A DNA stretch of 64,000 nt from Bacillota bacterium. GTDB lineage: Bacteria > Bacillota_I > Bacilli_A > RF39 > UBA660. Made by a program: the position numbers and the translations under genes. Shown here piece by piece: positions 34,571-47,224 of this stretch. The stretch's first letter is position 1; the number at the start of each line of letters is the position of its first letter. The stretch covers positions 1,146 to 65,145 of the forward strand of contig DOEC01000006.1 of the NCBI GenBank assembly GCA_003524085.1. Reading direction: 5' to 3'. The notes below the pieces were generated by a model. That model saw nothing but the letters and a program-made list of their open reading frames with translations. It had not been told where the DNA came from and searched no databases.

Positions 34571-34685
34571 AGTTTCCCCCTAGTAAAGTGTATGATTATT
34601 TTTTTATTTAATTCCATAATTTAGCAGTTGACTATACAAACAAAGACGTGTTATACTTAATGCGAACAAAGGATGGTGTTTGTCA

Positions 34686-35929
34686 TGGAAGAAAGAAATA
34701 TTTTATGTATTGATTTAAAGAGTTTTTTTGCTTCAGTTGAATGTATTGAAAGAAATTTAGACCCGTTTACTACTCCCTTAATTGTTGCTGATCCATCTAG
34801 AAAAGGTGGGGCGATTACTCTTGCAGTTACTCCATATATGAAAACTCTTGGTGTACCTTCTCGTGGAAGAGTTTTTGAGATACCTAAAGGAATTAAATAT
34901 ATTACAGCTACTCCTAGAATGAGTTTGTATGTTAAGAAAAGTAAAGAAGTTATTAATTGTTTTTTAGATTTTGTAAGTAAAGAAGATATGCATGTGTACT
35001 CTATAGACGAAGCGTTTTTAGATGTTACTGATTATTTAAAGTTATATAAGATGGATGATGTTACTTTAGCTAAAAACATAATGGCTAGAATTAAAGAGAA
35101 GACAGGACTTACTAGTACGTGTGGAATTGGGCCCAACTTACTTCTTGCTAAGGTTGCACTTGATATTGAGAGTAAACATAGTCCTGACTTTATCGCTAAG
35201 TGGACTTATGAAGATGTGAAGACTAAGTTATGGAATATAACACCATTAGACGAGATGTGGGGAATTGGATCTAAAACTATGAAAAAACTAAATGATCTAG
35301 GAATATATAAGGTTGGAGATATTAATAAGTATGGTAAAGAGTTTTATAAGAAAAGATTTGGTGTGTTAGGCGAAGAGTTGTATTTGCACGCGAATGGGAT
35401 AGATTATAGTAATATTAAAAATGATAGATATGAAGTTAAAAATAAAAGTTATGGACTTAGTCAGATATTATATAAAGATTATACTCCTAGTGAAGTTATT
35501 TTAATTGTTAAAGAGATGTGTGAGACCGCTACTAAAAGACTTAGAAGTAATAAAAAAGCATGCGAAGTAGTTGGTTTTGGTATTGGATACTCTAGAAGTG
35601 TTGGTGGTGGGTTTTATCATTCTAAGAAGTTATCTTCTCCTACTGATAAAGATAGCGTTATTTATGAAGTGTGCAAAAGTATACTTGATGCGTATATTGA
35701 AGAACTTCCTATTAGAAAGGTAAGTATTTCTCTTGGTAAATTAAGTGATAATAATTATGTACAGTTAAATTTATTTGATACAAACGAAGAAAGTTATGAT
35801 GAGACTATGAAAACAATTGACGAGATAACTAAGAGATTTGGGGATAATGCTATTTTAAAAGCGTCTAGTTTACTTGATTATAGTACAATTAAAATGCGTA
35901 ATAAGAAGATGGGTGGACATAATAAGTAA
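34686..35929 (+). CDS. Y-family (translesion) DNA polymerase, UmuC/UvrX/YqjW-like
   Basis: ILCIDLKSFFASVEC...LIVADPSRKGGAITLAVTPYMK; start at MEERN with an AAAGGA RBS. Confidence 0.8.
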
Positions 35930-35939
35930 TGGTGATATT

Positions 35940-36245
35940 ATGTATAGAAAAATGATTAAATGGAAACCATTTAATACCTTACTTAAGTATAAAGATATTT
36001 TAGAAATTGATAAAAATAGACAGTTAGTTGATAAGCCTGTTATTATGGAAGACAGGATATATGAAATTAATGATGTGTTAAAGAGTGTGAATTCTTCTAC
36101 TTTAGTTAGAGTAAAATATTTTAATAAAGGAATGCTATTATATAAAGAAGGATATGTTAGTAAAATTGATACAATAGAAAAATATATTCTAATAGATAGA
36201 TTTAGAATATATTTTAGGGAACTTATTAAAATTGAAGTTATTTAG
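35940..36245 (+). CDS. YolD-like protein (accessory partner of Y-family polymerases)
   Basis: About 100 aa, immediately downstream of the polymerase gene, as the yolD/yqjX genes are in Bacillus. Confidence 0.55.
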   Translation: MYRKMIKWKPFNTLLKYKDILEIDKNRQLVDKPVIMEDRIYEINDVLKSVNSSTLVRVKYFNKGMLLYKEGYVSKIDTIEKYILIDRFRIYFRELIKIEVI

Positions 36246-36759
36246 TTAATGAATGTACGACCATGTTGTCTTGATATTCTACTAAGTCTGGATATATTTT
36301 AAATAGAGTGTCTAAATCTTTCTTCTCTACTACTCTGTGTCCTAGAGTGTTAAAGTGAGTGGGATTTCCCATTACTGCTAGTGAAGTATCTATTACTACT
36401 TTCTTGTTATTAAGTACTGTTTCTACTACCCAGTGGCCGCCGAAAGAGCTACCCTCCGTACCTTTGAAGTGTGGGTTTACTACGTACACGGCTTCACTAT
36501 ATATTCCAAGTTTATCTAGTAAAAGAACAAGTTCATATGAACAGGTTTTGCATCTTCCACCAGTTAAGCCTAGTCTAAAAAGGTCAATAAATGCAAGAGG
36601 GCCATACCCAGTTATTCTAATTGGTGTTTTGTCTTTTGAAATTATATCCCATAAAAGCTCGTCAAACTCAGTTAGTTTGTTTTTACTATAAAGTTCATTA
36701 AATACTTTTTTAAATTCTTTATTGTTTCTTAATAACTCTTCTCTAAATACATTTTTCAT
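36238..36759 (-). CDS. transglutaminase-like cysteine peptidase superfamily protein
   Basis: GGRCKTCSYELVLLLDKLGI...GGHWVVE...VIDTS matches the Cys-His-Asp core pattern. Confidence 0.45.
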   Translation of the reverse strand: MKNVFREELLRNNKEFKKVFNELYSKNKLTEFDELLWDIISKDKTPIRITGYGPLAFIDLFRLGLTGGRCKTCSYELVLLLDKLGIYSEAVYVVNPHFKGTEGSSFGGHWVVETVLNNKKVVIDTSLAVMGNPTHFNTLGHRVVEKKDLDTLFKIYPDLVEYQDNMVVHSLTK

Positions 36760-36793: not shown

Positions 36794-37102
36794 CTATAGT
36801 TTTAAAGTCTTTTCTTTACCTTTAATGATAATGTTGTTATTTTGTGTAAATGACATGTCATATTCCTTAAAGTTTATCTTATCTAAAATTTGTTTTGGAA
36901 TTTTTATTTTGTTACCTACTTTTTCAACACTATAAGTATTTGCTAGTATTATTCTATAAACTTTTCTATTTTGACTAGTCATACTTAAATTTATGTTTTG
37001 TTTTAAGTTTGAAAGGATAAGAGTGTTTTCGTCTATCAAAGTAATGGATGTGAAATTTAAGTTTTCTGGTATTATCAAAAAATTATTTTTTATTTCAAAC
37101 AT
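36794..37102 (-). CDS. hypothetical protein
   Basis: ORF only. Confidence 0.4.
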   Translation of the reverse strand: MFEIKNNFLIIPENLNFTSITLIDENTLILSNLKQNINLSMTSQNRKVYRIILANTYSVEKVGNKIKIPKQILDKINFKEYDMSFTQNNNIIIKGKEKTLKL

Positions 37103-37220
37103 AATGTAGCCCCCTTAATTACTATAATTATACCATATTTGGTACTGTTTTGTCAAAAATTTGTGCTTTTATTTTTTAGGGTTAATTGATATAATTATAA
37201 TAGGTAAAGGTAGGGATTAT

Positions 37221-39230
37221 ATGGACAACGTTTTAAGTGAACTAGTGAAAAAACTAGAAAAAGGAGAAAGTGTAAGTAATTTAGTCAGTGAATTTAAAAT
37301 CAGTGAGTTTGAGCTTTTTGGTTATGTAAGAAAGTTAAAGGAAACTGGTATTAATGTTATTAGGACTGAAAAGAATAATGAAGTTAGACTAATAATTAAT
37401 CACCATCCTGATTATACAAAAGAAAATGTATATAATATTAATGTGGACGTAAACTTGAATACTAAGTTTGCTGTTATAAGTGATACTAGATTTGGTTCAA
37501 CAAACGAGCAAATTGCTATTTTAAATGACTTATATAAAAAGTTTTTAGAGTGTGGTGTTACATATGTAATTGTAGCAGGAAATTTACTTGAAGGCGAATA
37601 TAAAAACAACGATGTTTATGAATATGGTAAAAGTTTAATTAGTAATACTAGTATTGGGCAAGCTAATCATTTATTAGAGTTTTATCCTAAGGTAACTGGT
37701 ATTACTACTCTTTTTATTACAGGAAAAACTGACCATACTTGGAGTAAAGAGTTAAATGTTGGAGAATATATTAGTAGTAACAGAGATGATTTAATTTATT
37801 TAGGGCCTAAAAGTGCAACTATTAATTTTAATAAAGTTATGTTTAGGGTTGAGAATTTGAAAAAGCAAGGAGAAAGCTATACTATCGCATATCCACCACA
37901 GAAGTATTCTAGAAGTATGCCTAGTTATGAAGATTATGACGCGATATTTTTAGGTGGCACATTGACTGCACAGGAGTTTCCCACAATTAGAGATACTAAG
38001 ATGTTTGCAATACCTTCTGTAGTTGCTAGAACTCCAAAGATGAGAAATTTAAGTCAACAAAATACTATAGGTGCGTATGTTTTTGATATTAGTTATACTA
38101 AAAATGGAAAATTAAAGAGTATGAAGTCTACACTTATTCCCTACTACGTTCCTAGTAAAGAAAACTATATTACAATAAAGCCTCTTATAATAAGTGATAG
38201 TAAAGATAATGTTAAAGTTAAGCCTGTTAAAGATAATATGACTAGTATGTTAGATAGAATATATAGAAATATTAAGAAGGAAGAGAGTTTTAGTGATTTG
38301 ATGAATAGACTTTCAATTAATGAAAATGAACTTTATGGCGTGATTGACCTACTTCAAGAAAGAGGAAGAGATATTGGTATTAGTGAAATTGATGGGGTTC
38401 TTGTCGTTAGAAAAAATGTTAAAAAAATTAGAAAGACTGAGATAAAGCTACCTAAAGAAGAATTACATAAAAAGGTGTTTCTAGTTGTAAGTGATACGCA
38501 TTACGGAAGTATTTATAGTCAGCCTTCTATGGTAAATACATCTGTTTATGAAGCTTATAACCGTGGAATTACTGATATATTTCATGTTGGAGATATTACT
38601 GATGGAGATTATAGTAGAATTAGGCCAATACATAATTATGAAGTGTTTTTATATGGTGCGACTGGACAGCTTGAGTACACCTTAAATACTTTGCCTAAGT
38701 TTCCTGGAATGAAGTGGCACATTATTACTGGAAGTCATGATCAAACTCACCTATTTAATTATGGAGTCGATATTGGAAAAGAATTAGAAAAAAGAAGAGA
38801 CGATATTGAGTTTCTTGGGCAAGACAGAGGCTTTTATTATTTTGACAACTGCAAGATGGAGCTATTTCATCCAGGTGGTGGGACAAGCAGAATACTTTCT
38901 ACAAAGCCACAGAACGGAATTGATCAGATACCAAGTCATACTAAACCTAAAATCAGTTTAAGAGGACATTACCACAAGTCTTATTATATGTTTTATAGAA
39001 ATGTTCACACTTTCTTGTGTCCATGTAATGTTGATACATCTTCATTTATGATGAAAAATGAGATACCTAATTTGATGGGAAATTATTTCATTACTATTTG
39101 GTATGACGATAATGGAGATATTGAATATTTAGAAACTGAACCTATGATTTTTACTAATGAAGATGTGACTTACAGAGATTTTGAAAATCCTAAAAAGTTT
39201 ATAAAAAGCAAAATTAATAAAAAAATTTAA
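37221..39230 (+). CDS. internally duplicated [winged-HTH + calcineurin-like metallophosphoesterase] protein; N-terminal phosphoesterase copy degenerate
   Basis: C-terminal half has complete MPP motifs (VVSDTHYG, HVGDITDGDY, ITGSHDQ, GHYHKS). N-terminal half has the same blocks mutated (VISDTRFG, VAGNLLEGEY, ITGKTDHT). Each half is preceded by a BirA-like wHTH segment. Start at MDNVLSEL (RBS AAAGGTAGGG). Confidence 0.6.
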   Translation: MDNVLSELVKKLEKGESVSNLVSEFKISEFELFGYVRKLKETGINVIRTEKNNEVRLIINHHPDYTKENVYNINVDVNLNTKFAVISDTRFGSTNEQIAILNDLYKKFLECGVTYVIVAGNLLEGEYKNNDVYEYGKSLISNTSIGQANHLLEFYPKVTGITTLFITGKTDHTWSKELNVGEYISSNRDDLIYLGPKSATINFNKVMFRVENLKKQGESYTIAYPPQKYSRSMPSYEDYDAIFLGGTLTAQEFPTIRDTKMFAIPSVVARTPKMRNLSQQNTIGAYVFDISYTKNGKLKSMKSTLIPYYVPSKENYITIKPLIISDSKDNVKVKPVKDNMTSMLDRIYRNIKKEESFSDLMNRLSINENELYGVIDLLQERGRDIGISEIDGVLVVRKNVKKIRKTEIKLPKEELHKKVFLVVSDTHYGSIYSQPSMVNTSVYEAYNRGITDIFHVGDITDGDYSRIRPIHNYEVFLYGATGQLEYTLNTLPKFPGMKWHIITGSHDQTHLFNYGVDIGKELEKRRDDIEFLGQDRGFYYFDNCKMELFHPGGGTSRILSTKPQNGIDQIPSHTKPKISLRGHYHKSYYMFYRNVHTFLCPCNVDTSSFMMKNEIPNLMGNYFITIWYDDNGDIEYLETEPMIFTNEDVTYRDFENPKKFIKSKINKKI

Positions 39231-39310: not shown

Positions 39311-39387
39311 GGGGAATTAGCTCAGTTGGCTAGAGCACCTGCCTTGCACGCAGGGGGTCGCGGGTTCAAGTCCCACATTCTCCACCA
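39311..39387 (+). tRNA. tRNA-Ala (anticodon UGC), CCA encoded
   Basis: Cloverleaf readable by eye with G3:U70 and anticodon loop CTTGCAC; one C:A mismatch in the T-stem. Confidence 0.8.
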
Positions 39388-46130: not shown

Positions 46131-46207
46131 TGGTCGGGAAGACAGGATTTGAACCTGCAACCACTCGGTCCCAAACCGAGTGCTCTACCAAGTTGAGCCA
46201 CTTCCCG
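46131..46207 (-). tRNA. tRNA-Pro (UGG)
   Basis: Cloverleaf by eye: CGGGAAG acceptor, anticodon loop UUUGGGA, CCA encoded. Confidence 0.85.
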
Positions 46208-46212
46208 ATAAA

Positions 46213-46289
46213 TGGCGTCCCCAAGAGGAGTCGAACCCCTAACCTTTTGATCCGTAGTCAAACGCTCTATCCAGTTGAGCTATGAGGAC
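46213..46289 (-). tRNA. tRNA-Arg (ACG)
   Basis: GTCCTCATAGCTCAACTGGATAGAGC..., anticodon loop CUACGGA. Confidence 0.85.
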
Positions 46290-46332
46290 AGCCTGTCCAA
46301 AATATATATAAGCTCCGGCTGGCTTTTAAAAA

Positions 46333-46408
46333 TGGTGGCTTCAGTTGGAATCGAACCAACGACACCAAGATTTTCAGTCTTGTGCTCTGCCAACTGAGCT
46401 ATGAAGCC
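46333..46408 (-). tRNA. tRNA-Phe (GAA)
   Basis: GGCTTCATAGCTCAGTTGG..., anticodon loop CUGAAAA. Confidence 0.85.
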
Positions 46409-46412
46409 ACAA

Positions 46413-46488
46413 TGGCGGTTCCGACGGGAATTGAACCCGCGATCCCTCGCGTGACAGGCGAGTGTGATAACCGCTACACCACGGAACC
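46413..46488 (-). tRNA. tRNA-Asp (GUC)
   Basis: GGTTCCGTGGTGTAGCGG..., anticodon loop CUGUCAC. Confidence 0.85.
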
Positions 46489-46495
46489 TTATTTT

Positions 46496-46572
<77 letters not shown>

Positions 46573-46590
46573 ATGTTAGTTTTTTAATTT

Positions 46591-46683
46591 TGGCGGAGGA
46601 AAAGGGATTTGAACCCCTGCGCCGCTTTCACGACCTCCTGGTTTTCAAGACCAGTCCCTTCAGCCAGACTTGGGTATTCCTCC
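46591..46683 (-). tRNA. tRNA-Ser (UGA), long variable arm
   Basis: GGAGGAATACCCAAGTCTGG..., anticodon loop CUUGAAA, 93 nt. Confidence 0.85.
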
Positions 46684-46690
46684 AACAAGA

Positions 46691-46779
46691 TGGTGCCTCG
46701 GGCCGGACTTGAACCGGCACGGTATTTAACTACCGAGGGATTTTAAGTCCCTTGCGTCTACCAATTTCGCCACCGAGGC
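46691..46779 (-). tRNA. tRNA-Leu (UAA), long variable arm
   Basis: GCCTCGGTGGCGAAATTGGTAGACGC..., anticodon loop CUUAAAA, 89 nt. Confidence 0.85.
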
Positions 46780-46803
46780 GTGTCACAATTTTTTATTAAA
46801 AAA

Positions 46804-46879
46804 TGGTGACCCGCTGGAGATTCGAACTCCAGACCCCTTGATTAAAAGTCAAGTGCTCTACCGGCTGAGCTAGCGGGTC
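46804..46879 (-). tRNA. tRNA-Lys (UUU)
   Basis: GACCCGCTAGCTCAGCCGG..., anticodon loop CUUUUAA. Confidence 0.85.
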
Positions 46880-46891
46880 AATATTATAAAT

Positions 46892-46967
46892 TGGTTGCCT
46901 CGGCGGGATTCGAACCAGCGAAATGCACGAGTCAAAGTCGTGTGCCTTACCACTTGGCTACGAGGCA
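46892..46967 (-). tRNA. tRNA-Gln (UUG)
   Basis: TGCCTCGTAGCCAAGTGGTAAGGC..., anticodon loop CUUUGAC; one U:C mismatch in the T-stem. Confidence 0.75.
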
Positions 46968-46974
46968 ATCTAAG

Positions 46975-47058
46975 TGGTGGAGAGACATGGATTCGAACCA
47001 TGGAACCCGAAGGAACAGATTTACAGTCTGCCGCGTTTAGCCTCTTCGCTATCTCTCC
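46975..47058 (-). tRNA. tRNA-Tyr (GUA), long variable arm
   Basis: GGAGAGATAGCGAAG..., anticodon loop CUGUAAA, 84 nt. Confidence 0.85.
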
Positions 47059-47065
47059 AAAAAAA

Positions 47066-47141
<76 letters not shown>

Positions 47142-47147
47142 AAATTA

Positions 47148-47224
47148 TGGTGGGCGACGAGAGACTCGAACTCCCGACCTCCTGCTTGTAAGGCAGATGC
47201 TCTAACCAACTGAGCTAGTCGCCC
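47148..47224 (-). tRNA. tRNA-Val (UAC)
   Basis: GGGCGACTAGCTCAGTTGG..., anticodon loop CUUACAA. Confidence 0.85.

Follow-up and report, generated by a model that had tools for sequence, protein, structure and literature searches.

We analysed a 64,000-nucleotide stretch of contig DOEC01000006.1 from an RF39-lineage member of the Bacillota (hereafter, the window), and in particular its plus-strand gene at positions 37221-39230, which encodes a protein of 669 residues. The architecture of this protein, an active and a dead DP1-like phosphoesterase joined in a single chain, is assigned with high confidence. For the complete proposal, namely that the protein is an obligate active/dead pseudo-heterodimeric phosphodiesterase that works as a nuclease on nucleic-acid ends, we estimate a probability of about 0.45, the nucleic-acid substrate included. 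An ancient duplication produced two paralogues, each combining a winged helix with a binuclear-metal phosphoesterase of the PolD-DP1/B-subunit/Mre11 branch, and according to this proposal the single chain would represent an intramolecular heterodimer of both. The C-terminal module (C-module) would be the enzyme, probably cutting phosphodiester bonds at nucleic-acid ends as an exo- or endonuclease of the DP1/Mre11 type, and the N-terminal module (N-module) would most likely be an obligate non-catalytic partner, serving as a scaffold, a substrate clamp or a partner-binding face. DP1 is the archaeal 3'-5' proofreading exonuclease subunit of DNA polymerase D, and the B-subunits of the eukaryotic polymerases alpha, delta and epsilon are inactivated DP1 homologues (Pfam DNA_pol_E_B); by analogy, the role of the dead N-module may be comparable to that of these B-subunits.

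Sequence comparison shows that both halves of the protein are homologous along their whole length, at a level that chance cannot explain. BLASTP of residues 1-334 against 335-669 gives E 1e-21 (24% identity across 311 residues), profiles of the N-like and C-like modules from other organisms yield an alignment of 325 columns that takes in the winged helix, with a probability of 100% and E 2e-86, and a faint DNA repeat with a spacing of 1011 nt persists at motif I. The two tandem modules described in an earlier sequence-only reading, each a winged helix-turn-helix (wHTH) segment followed by a metallophosphoesterase, were thus confirmed. An AlphaFold2 (AF2) model built with 33 orthologues (mean predicted local distance difference test score, pLDDT, 78.5; predicted template modelling score, pTM, 0.75) displays this layout twice, with an H-H-H-beta-beta pattern at residues 2-59 and 339-398 and a phosphoesterase core of alternating strands and helices after each. 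The C-module has the calcineurin-type four-layer beta-sandwich phosphoesterase fold, and a compact two-module body would fit the pTM value. The profile matches of the window protein are faint: Pfam Metallophos_2 hits the C-module at 22.4 bits (cut-off 27) and is found in 31 of 33 orthologues, and the N-module yields only recurrent DNA_pol_E_B matches, in 11 of 33 orthologues and far below cut-off. The winged helices match a BirA model at E 0.14 only, with HTH_11 detected in 9 of 33 orthologues (best 1.3e-4, below cut-off); however, more remote members of the family show them clearly (in P0139, HTH_11 scores 37.8 bits with a cut-off of 25; birA_repr_reg reaches E 2e-9), and the model contains the three-helix bundle and beta-hairpin wing of the HTH_11/BirA type. 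The BirA-like segments of the sequence-only reading therefore stand by structure and by distant relatives and are weak by sequence here.

The same reading gave the length as 689 residues, a value that stems from the mechanical call of the longest plus-strand open reading frame (ORF) ending at 39230, which starts with a TTG at 37161; its own gene coordinates give 669. We adopt 669 residues, because the ribosome-binding site GGTAGGGA at 37209-37216 precedes the ATG at 37221 and because the close orthologues all share the corresponding Met start. The gene and its domains are as follows (aa, amino acids).

37221-39230, plus strand: coding sequence of the fused N-like (dead) and C-like (active) wHTH-phosphoesterase, 669 aa and a stop codon, from the ORF list, the ribosome-binding site and the orthologues.
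37221-37400, plus strand: winged helix 1, aa 1-60; model helices 2-14, 18-25 and 29-41, strands 46-51 and 54-59, pLDDT about 80-89.
37461-38180, plus strand: degenerate phosphoesterase domain, aa 81-320, from the alignment to the C-module, the motifs and the weak DNA_pol_E_B matches.
38232-38414, plus strand: winged helix 2, aa 338-398; model helices 339-350, 357-364 and 368-380, strands 385-390 and 393-398, aligning with winged helix 1.
Directly after winged helix 2: conserved basic linker, aa 399-415; K398, K402, R403, K409 and K412 are conserved.
38466-39170, plus strand: intact phosphoesterase domain, aa 416-650, with D425-x-H427, G457-D458, S505-H506-D507, H550 and G582-H583-x-H585.

The motif status of both phosphoesterase copies was compared across 33 fused, 50 C-like and 25 N-like sequences, with the following correspondence of residues.

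Motif I Asp: D425 in the C-module, D88 in the N-module (kept).
Motif I His: H427 in the C-module, R90 in the N-module.
Motif II Asp: D458 in the C-module, N121 in the N-module.
Motif III Asn: S505 in the C-module, D/K/E169 in the N-module.
Motif III His: H506 in the C-module, T/N170 in the N-module.
Motif III Asp: D507 in the C-module, D171 in the N-module (kept, 30 of 33).
Motif IV His: H550 in the C-module, N/Q/S212 in the N-module.
Motif V His 1: H583 in the C-module, T247 in the N-module.
Motif V His 2: H585 in the C-module, T249 in the N-module.

All five C-module motifs (D425-T-H427, G457-D458..D461, G504-S-H-D507, H550 and G582-H-Y-H585) are invariant in the 33 orthologues, as expected from the earlier description of a C-terminal copy with a full set of metal-binding motifs. 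The sole non-canonical residue is Ser505, which replaces the motif III Asn; the C-like relatives have Asn in 44 and Ser in 5 of 50 sequences. In the N-module, where the strings D88-T-R90, G120-N121..E124 and G168-K-T-D-H172 read exactly as first noticed, D88 alone remains of the eight canonical residues for metal binding and catalysis, the other seven being gone. N-like proteins of other lineages are less decayed, with the GD of motif II and the motif IV His each retained in 12 of 25, and D-x-R is nearly universal among them (21 of 25). Judged by these motifs, the C-module is predicted to be catalytically intact and the N-module catalytically dead. The mean pairwise identity among the orthologues amounts to 70.6% for the dead domain and 77.1% for the active domain, so the dead copy is under selection and not drifting. 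Because seven of eight residues have been lost and yet selection on the N-module is almost as tight, an obligate non-catalytic partner is the role that we favour for it.

Uncultured gut Bacilli carry full-length orthologues with 56-99% identity in 38 species-level genomes, and hundreds of metagenome clusters contain orthologues as well. Carriers include 'Clostridium sp. CAG:628', 'Mycoplasma sp. CAG:472' and 'Clostridium sp. CAG:1000'; we take these 'Clostridium' and 'Mycoplasma' CAG genomes to belong to the RF39 group. Each of the 38 genomes yielded one full-length gene, in varied chromosomal contexts, a figure that is not a genome-wide copy count. The same low-GC Bacilli gene occurs in five records (L010, L011, L027, L028 and L033) titled 'Bacteroides helcogenes' or 'uncultured Muribaculaceae', which are probably mis-binned or taxonomically mislabelled metagenome-assembled genomes. 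In one RF39 sub-clade (L026, L027, L029 and L033) another metallophosphoesterase, unrelated to this one and about 280 aa long, in which DxH, GD, GNHD and GHxH are recognisable by eye, is encoded directly downstream of the gene; in three of these four loci the gene for the Obg GTPase lies two ORFs beyond it, and L033 ends inside the metallophosphoesterase-Obg stretch.

A search of 1.84 billion representative proteins returned 2276 matches at E <=1e-3 and 240 at E <=1e-30, among them proteins of about 330 aa that match the N-half alone or the C-half alone. These half-length proteins constitute a split form of the system in other Firmicutes: in all six families looked up (9 loci) the N-like gene is directly followed by the C-like gene, and the two genes overlap or stand no more than about 10 nt apart. 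The split locus L094 has the gene order ABC, ABC, MarR, patatin, DUF3419, A, B (the split pair), a 355-aa ORF, PcrA, an LRR-domain ORF and VanY, which is syntenic with the order ABC, ABC, patatin, X (the fused gene), PcrA, VanY of the fused loci L011, L013 and L028; therefore, fusion and pair represent orthologous states. The distant fused forms also have the dead-then-active order and lie amid housekeeping genes, for example in L044, where the neighbours encode a CCA-adding enzyme, a pseudouridine synthase and guanylate kinase. Thus, the active and dead paralogues are always encoded together, adjacent or fused, and both are strongly selected.

Some split pairs have additional neighbours. A 994-aa, K/N/E-rich ORF without a Pfam match is located directly upstream of the pair, in an apparent operon, in L041 (4013-6997) and L042 (1566-4550); it was considered as a DP2- or Rad50-like partner and rejected, since neither the window nor any other locus contains it. 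A 199-aa HTH_11/WYL-domain protein is encoded directly downstream of a pair in L096 and L097 (9062-9661 in both). WYL regulators are often tied to DNA-damage responses.

Evolutionary constraint was calibrated in nine loci in which rnhB, the gene and glyQS occur together, as the window shares no housekeeping orthologue with these loci. The mean pairwise identities are 80.5% for RNase HII, 77.3% for this protein and 79.2% for GlyRS, which corresponds to the level of core housekeeping enzymes.

The relationship to DP1 emerged from profile searches. The C-like profile run against the PDB sequences obtained significant matches to DP1 chains only (E 3.6e-8 to 5e-6), and these matches run through motifs I-III, GHxH and the QxQTxF segment after it. 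Among the PDB sequences, only the broader profile of the modules (A2) led to DP1; the narrow orthologue profile A1 gave no genuine match and the N-like profile A3 none at all. In all ten single-module relatives (best 3e-11), and also in the closer relatives P0123 and P0130, the NCBIfam DP1 model ranks first; the highest value among the relatives is 42.9 bits, far short of the cut-off of 445, and the window protein itself has no match to the model.

Where the active module occurs singly, with an additional N-terminal domain, it is encoded by phages. Such genes were found in the siphovirus contigs L047 and L048 and in the element L049, and further single-module relatives are ORF43 of the halovirus Halorubrum virus BLv36 and genes in 42 IMG/VR loci. 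The top structural matches in BFVD reach E 1e-21, the only viral family matched is the PHROG 'DNA repair exonuclease', and the phage relatives bear the automatic name 'DNA polymerase II small subunit'. In the phage genomes the gene is often located before the terminase and portal genes and after lysis, tail, SSB or ERCC4 genes. A small ORF stands between the relative and the large terminase and portal genes in several phage contigs (L047 9001-10721; L053, L067, L069, L071, L075 and others), and in L047 the gene next to the relative is sigma-70-like. The slot before terminase and portal is the position of the HNH endonuclease in cos phages.

The affinity to DP1 and Mre11 and the phage relatives together make nucleic-acid ends the most likely substrate of the putative enzyme. 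Among the genomic neighbours, those of DNA metabolism also count in favour of a nuclease, with rnhB present in 10 of the 38 loci and PcrA in three fused loci and one split locus. Several observations weigh against the proposal. The literature searched contains no biochemical evidence on any family member. The motif III Ser takes the place of a metal-binding Asn in all 33 orthologues. DP1 has an OB domain, whereas the window protein has a winged helix (2-59) and a strand at 81-87 without the five-stranded barrel. Neither the 38 fused loci nor the split loci contain a DP2-like or other conserved large partner gene. The gene neighbourhood as such is not conserved, no neighbour recurs throughout as an operon partner, and translation and RNA genes are numerous among the neighbours (glyQS, mnmA, CCA-adding enzyme, RluD-like, L32/L33 and EF-P), a setting that would suit an RNA or nucleotide substrate just as well.

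The last of these points leads to a first alternative, in which the protein would be an RNA-end or nucleotide phosphodiesterase of translation or RNA metabolism with the winged helices as RNA-binding modules; its tasks could be, for example, removal of 2',3'-cyclic or 3'-phosphates, tRNA or rRNA end processing, or turnover of Ap4A or nanoRNA. Such a role would suit the occurrence of glyQS in about 10 loci and of mnmA in five, of the CCA-adding enzyme, RluD-like and Gmk genes in L044, of L33, EF-P, YceD, L32 and SpoU in L041, and of Der (L040), RsmD (L045) and HisRS (L096), as well as the tRNA-Ala and ProRS genes in the window and the S25e-like winged-helix matches in relatives. Binuclear phosphoesterases are also known to heal RNA ends, as does the phosphatase module of Clostridium thermocellum Pnkp. 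However, none of the translation neighbours is conserved family-wide, the sole specific affinity in sequence and fold is to the DNA exonuclease DP1, and the phage relatives are found in DNA-metabolism or packaging regions. We consider this alternative unlikely; RNA-end and nucleotide substrates stay live because the translation neighbours are many and because small-molecule phosphodiesterases share the fold.

We likewise see a rather low chance for a regulator of the BirA/NadR kind, whose winged helices would bind an operator with two half-sites and whose phosphoesterases would sense or destroy a cyclic or dinucleotide effector. The winged helices resemble HTH_11/BirA repressor domains, the small-molecule phosphodiesterases MJ0936/YfcE and SapH are good structural matches, and a partly symmetrical repeat extends over the divergent promoter region (37112-37135 / 37187-37210). 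A precedent for paralogous wHTH subunits that are sometimes fused is PafBC, a wHTH-WYL regulator composed of two such subunits (PMC5656591). Nevertheless, the two winged helices are the least conserved regions of the protein, with mean pairwise identities of 45% and 60% against 71-77% for the cores, which is the reverse of the usual pattern in DNA-binding regulators. By our own residue count they are about charge-neutral, and their acidic or hydrophobic third helices start with a conserved E-x-E-L-F/Y-G. A regulator conserved throughout an order as strongly as GlyRS and RNase HII would be unusual, no conserved target gene adjoins the gene in the 38 loci, and the phage relatives lie amid replication, packaging and lysis genes. 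The lower conservation of the winged helices relative to the cores, and their lack of a clearly basic character, make tethering a likelier role than that of a classical transcription factor, and these winged helices probably tether the active/dead pair to nucleic acid or to another protein. The results speak neither for nor against the sensor pseudo-domain of a cyclic-nucleotide phosphodiesterase that the sequence-only reading had also suggested.

A bolder version of the nuclease proposal, to which we assign only a slim chance, regards the family as a bacterial and phage sister lineage of the PolD DP1/B-subunit clade that acts as a stand-alone replication exonuclease, an essential and so far overlooked replisome or repair accessory in genome-reduced gut Bacilli. 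The protein would then proofread in trans, remove primers or flaps, or process ends, and the active/dead pairing would be an independent bacterial re-run of the inactivation that led from DP1 to the eukaryotic B-subunits. Finally, although single-module relatives are common in tailed phages and occur in one halovirus, a domesticated or resident mobile-element gene (a prophage remnant) without host function, conserved via a widespread element, is highly improbable for a gene that in the window stands amid chromosomal housekeeping genes with normal GC content and no adjoining phage genes, is present in full length in varied chromosomal contexts of 38 species-level genomes, evolves as slowly as GlyRS and RNase HII, and has no match in anti-phage defence models.

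The surroundings of the gene in the window include the following features.

34673-36245, plus strand: tight pair of a Y-family polymerase (IMS, IMS_HHH, IMS_C) and a YolD-like protein, from domain matches.
36238-36759, minus strand: ORF of 173 aa without a Pfam match, lying between YolD and the gene; its conservation is limited to the four closest genomes (L001-L004).
36794-37102, minus strand: ORF of 102 aa without a Pfam match, between YolD and the gene, conserved only in the same four genomes.
37187-37216, plus strand: putative promoter and ribosome-binding site of the gene itself, read by eye, with an extended -10 TGaTATAAT at 37187-37195 and GGTAGGGA at 37209-37216.
39311-39387, downstream of the gene: tRNA-Ala, with a promoter-like site and a terminator of its own.

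The polymerase-YolD pair and the tRNA are located where the sequence-only reading had placed them, but they are incidental neighbours whose association with the gene is not conserved and carries no functional weight: a Y-family polymerase occurs close to the gene in just 7 of the 38 loci and, in the window, two opposite-strand ORFs lie between. In the distant loci L026, L029 and L030 the polymerases are only 28-32% identical, and their proximity is therefore probably coincidental. The tRNA is the sole Rfam match. The GC content of the gene matches that of its surroundings, with no sign of recent transfer. Elsewhere in the window, the minus strand carries a cluster of 12 tRNA genes at 46131-47224 (Pro, Arg, Phe, Asp, Met, Ser, Leu, Lys, Gln, Tyr, Thr and Val).

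As to transcription, the gene probably carries an extended -10 element of its own; since a consensus scan gave no two-hexamer promoter on its plus strand, the promoter at 37187-37195 is one that we infer. The 118-bp divergent intergenic region also contains a perfect sigma-70 promoter (TTGACA-18-TATAAT, minus strand, 37156-37127) for the 102-aa ORF and repeats of two kinds, one direct and 18 nt long (37115-37132 / 37182-37199), the other inverted, imperfect and 24 nt long (37112-37135 / 37187-37210), which spans both -10 regions. The repeats within 37112-37210 could constitute an operator or merely reflect two alike AT-rich promoters.

We found no curated Pfam or NCBIfam family that covers the protein and no description of the family in the literature searched, and the source names of the cluster members are limited to 'predicted phosphodiesterase' and 'biotin operon repressor'. 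New are the architecture and the pairing of an enzyme with a pseudoenzyme, whereas the superfamily is known. RF39-type Bacilli are abundant, uncultured gut bacteria, and in them a 669-aa protein evolving at the pace of an aminoacyl-tRNA synthetase has had neither a name nor a curated family nor, by sequence, a solved relative. The DP1-like phosphoesterases, hitherto discussed as components of archaeal and eukaryotic replication, now extend to bacteria and phages, and the enzyme/pseudoenzyme pair exists in three natural states, as a single gene, as two adjacent genes and as a fusion. If the protein is indeed a replication or repair nuclease, it would be a missing DNA-metabolism component of RF39-type Bacilli, a prediction open to direct test with recombinant protein.

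In comparison with known systems, PolD DP1 (5ihe_A, 221 residues aligned) heads the table of closest relatives with a figure of 18.8, followed by MJ0936 (16.6), the Pol epsilon B-subunit (15.0), Mre11 (15.0) and the Pol delta and alpha B-subunits (about 14.5), and Foldseek agrees. The PADLOC defence models have no match for the window protein or the split forms, and the distant fused forms have only generic winged-helix matches to CARF/Csa3/CasR models. MJ0936/YfcE (Pfam Metallophos_2) are single-domain proteins of about 165 aa that act on small phosphodiesters and, in contrast to the family, have neither a winged helix nor a pseudo-paralogue. Bxb1 gp47, a mycobacteriophage recombination directionality factor with a DP1/Mre11-like phosphoesterase, is needed for phage DNA replication and has weak 3' exonuclease activity (PMC11795197). 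As a phage phosphoesterase of this type in a replication region, it is a functional analogue of the phage relatives of the family; however, it lacks both a winged helix and a dead paralogue, and it was rejected as a relative (hhalign against profile A1, probability 0.5%, E 0.12). The sequence-only reading had also raised an Mre11-like DNA end-processing factor, from which the results lead away: the family profile finds no Mre11 or SbcD chain at E <=1, no Rad50/SbcC- or SMC-like neighbour is present in about 50 cellular loci, fused or split, the capping domain of Mre11/SbcD was not recognised in the family, and the DP1/B-subunit lineage is closer. The eukaryotic B-subunits differ in having an OB domain, the DNA_pol_E_B matches of the family being far below cut-off, and in their partner: they pair with a polymerase catalytic subunit, whereas here the dead copy pairs with an active paralogue. 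DP1 itself (PDB 5IHE, 6KNB and 8PPT) is matched only in its phosphoesterase part (chain residues 206-309 and 406-449), to which the phosphoesterase domain of the family is specifically related. Because the family is without the OB domain and without a DP2- or Rad50-like neighbour, we place it as a sister group within the superfamily and not as a member of DP1, which is archaeal, whereas the family described here is bacterial and phage-borne and has been duplicated into active and dead copies.

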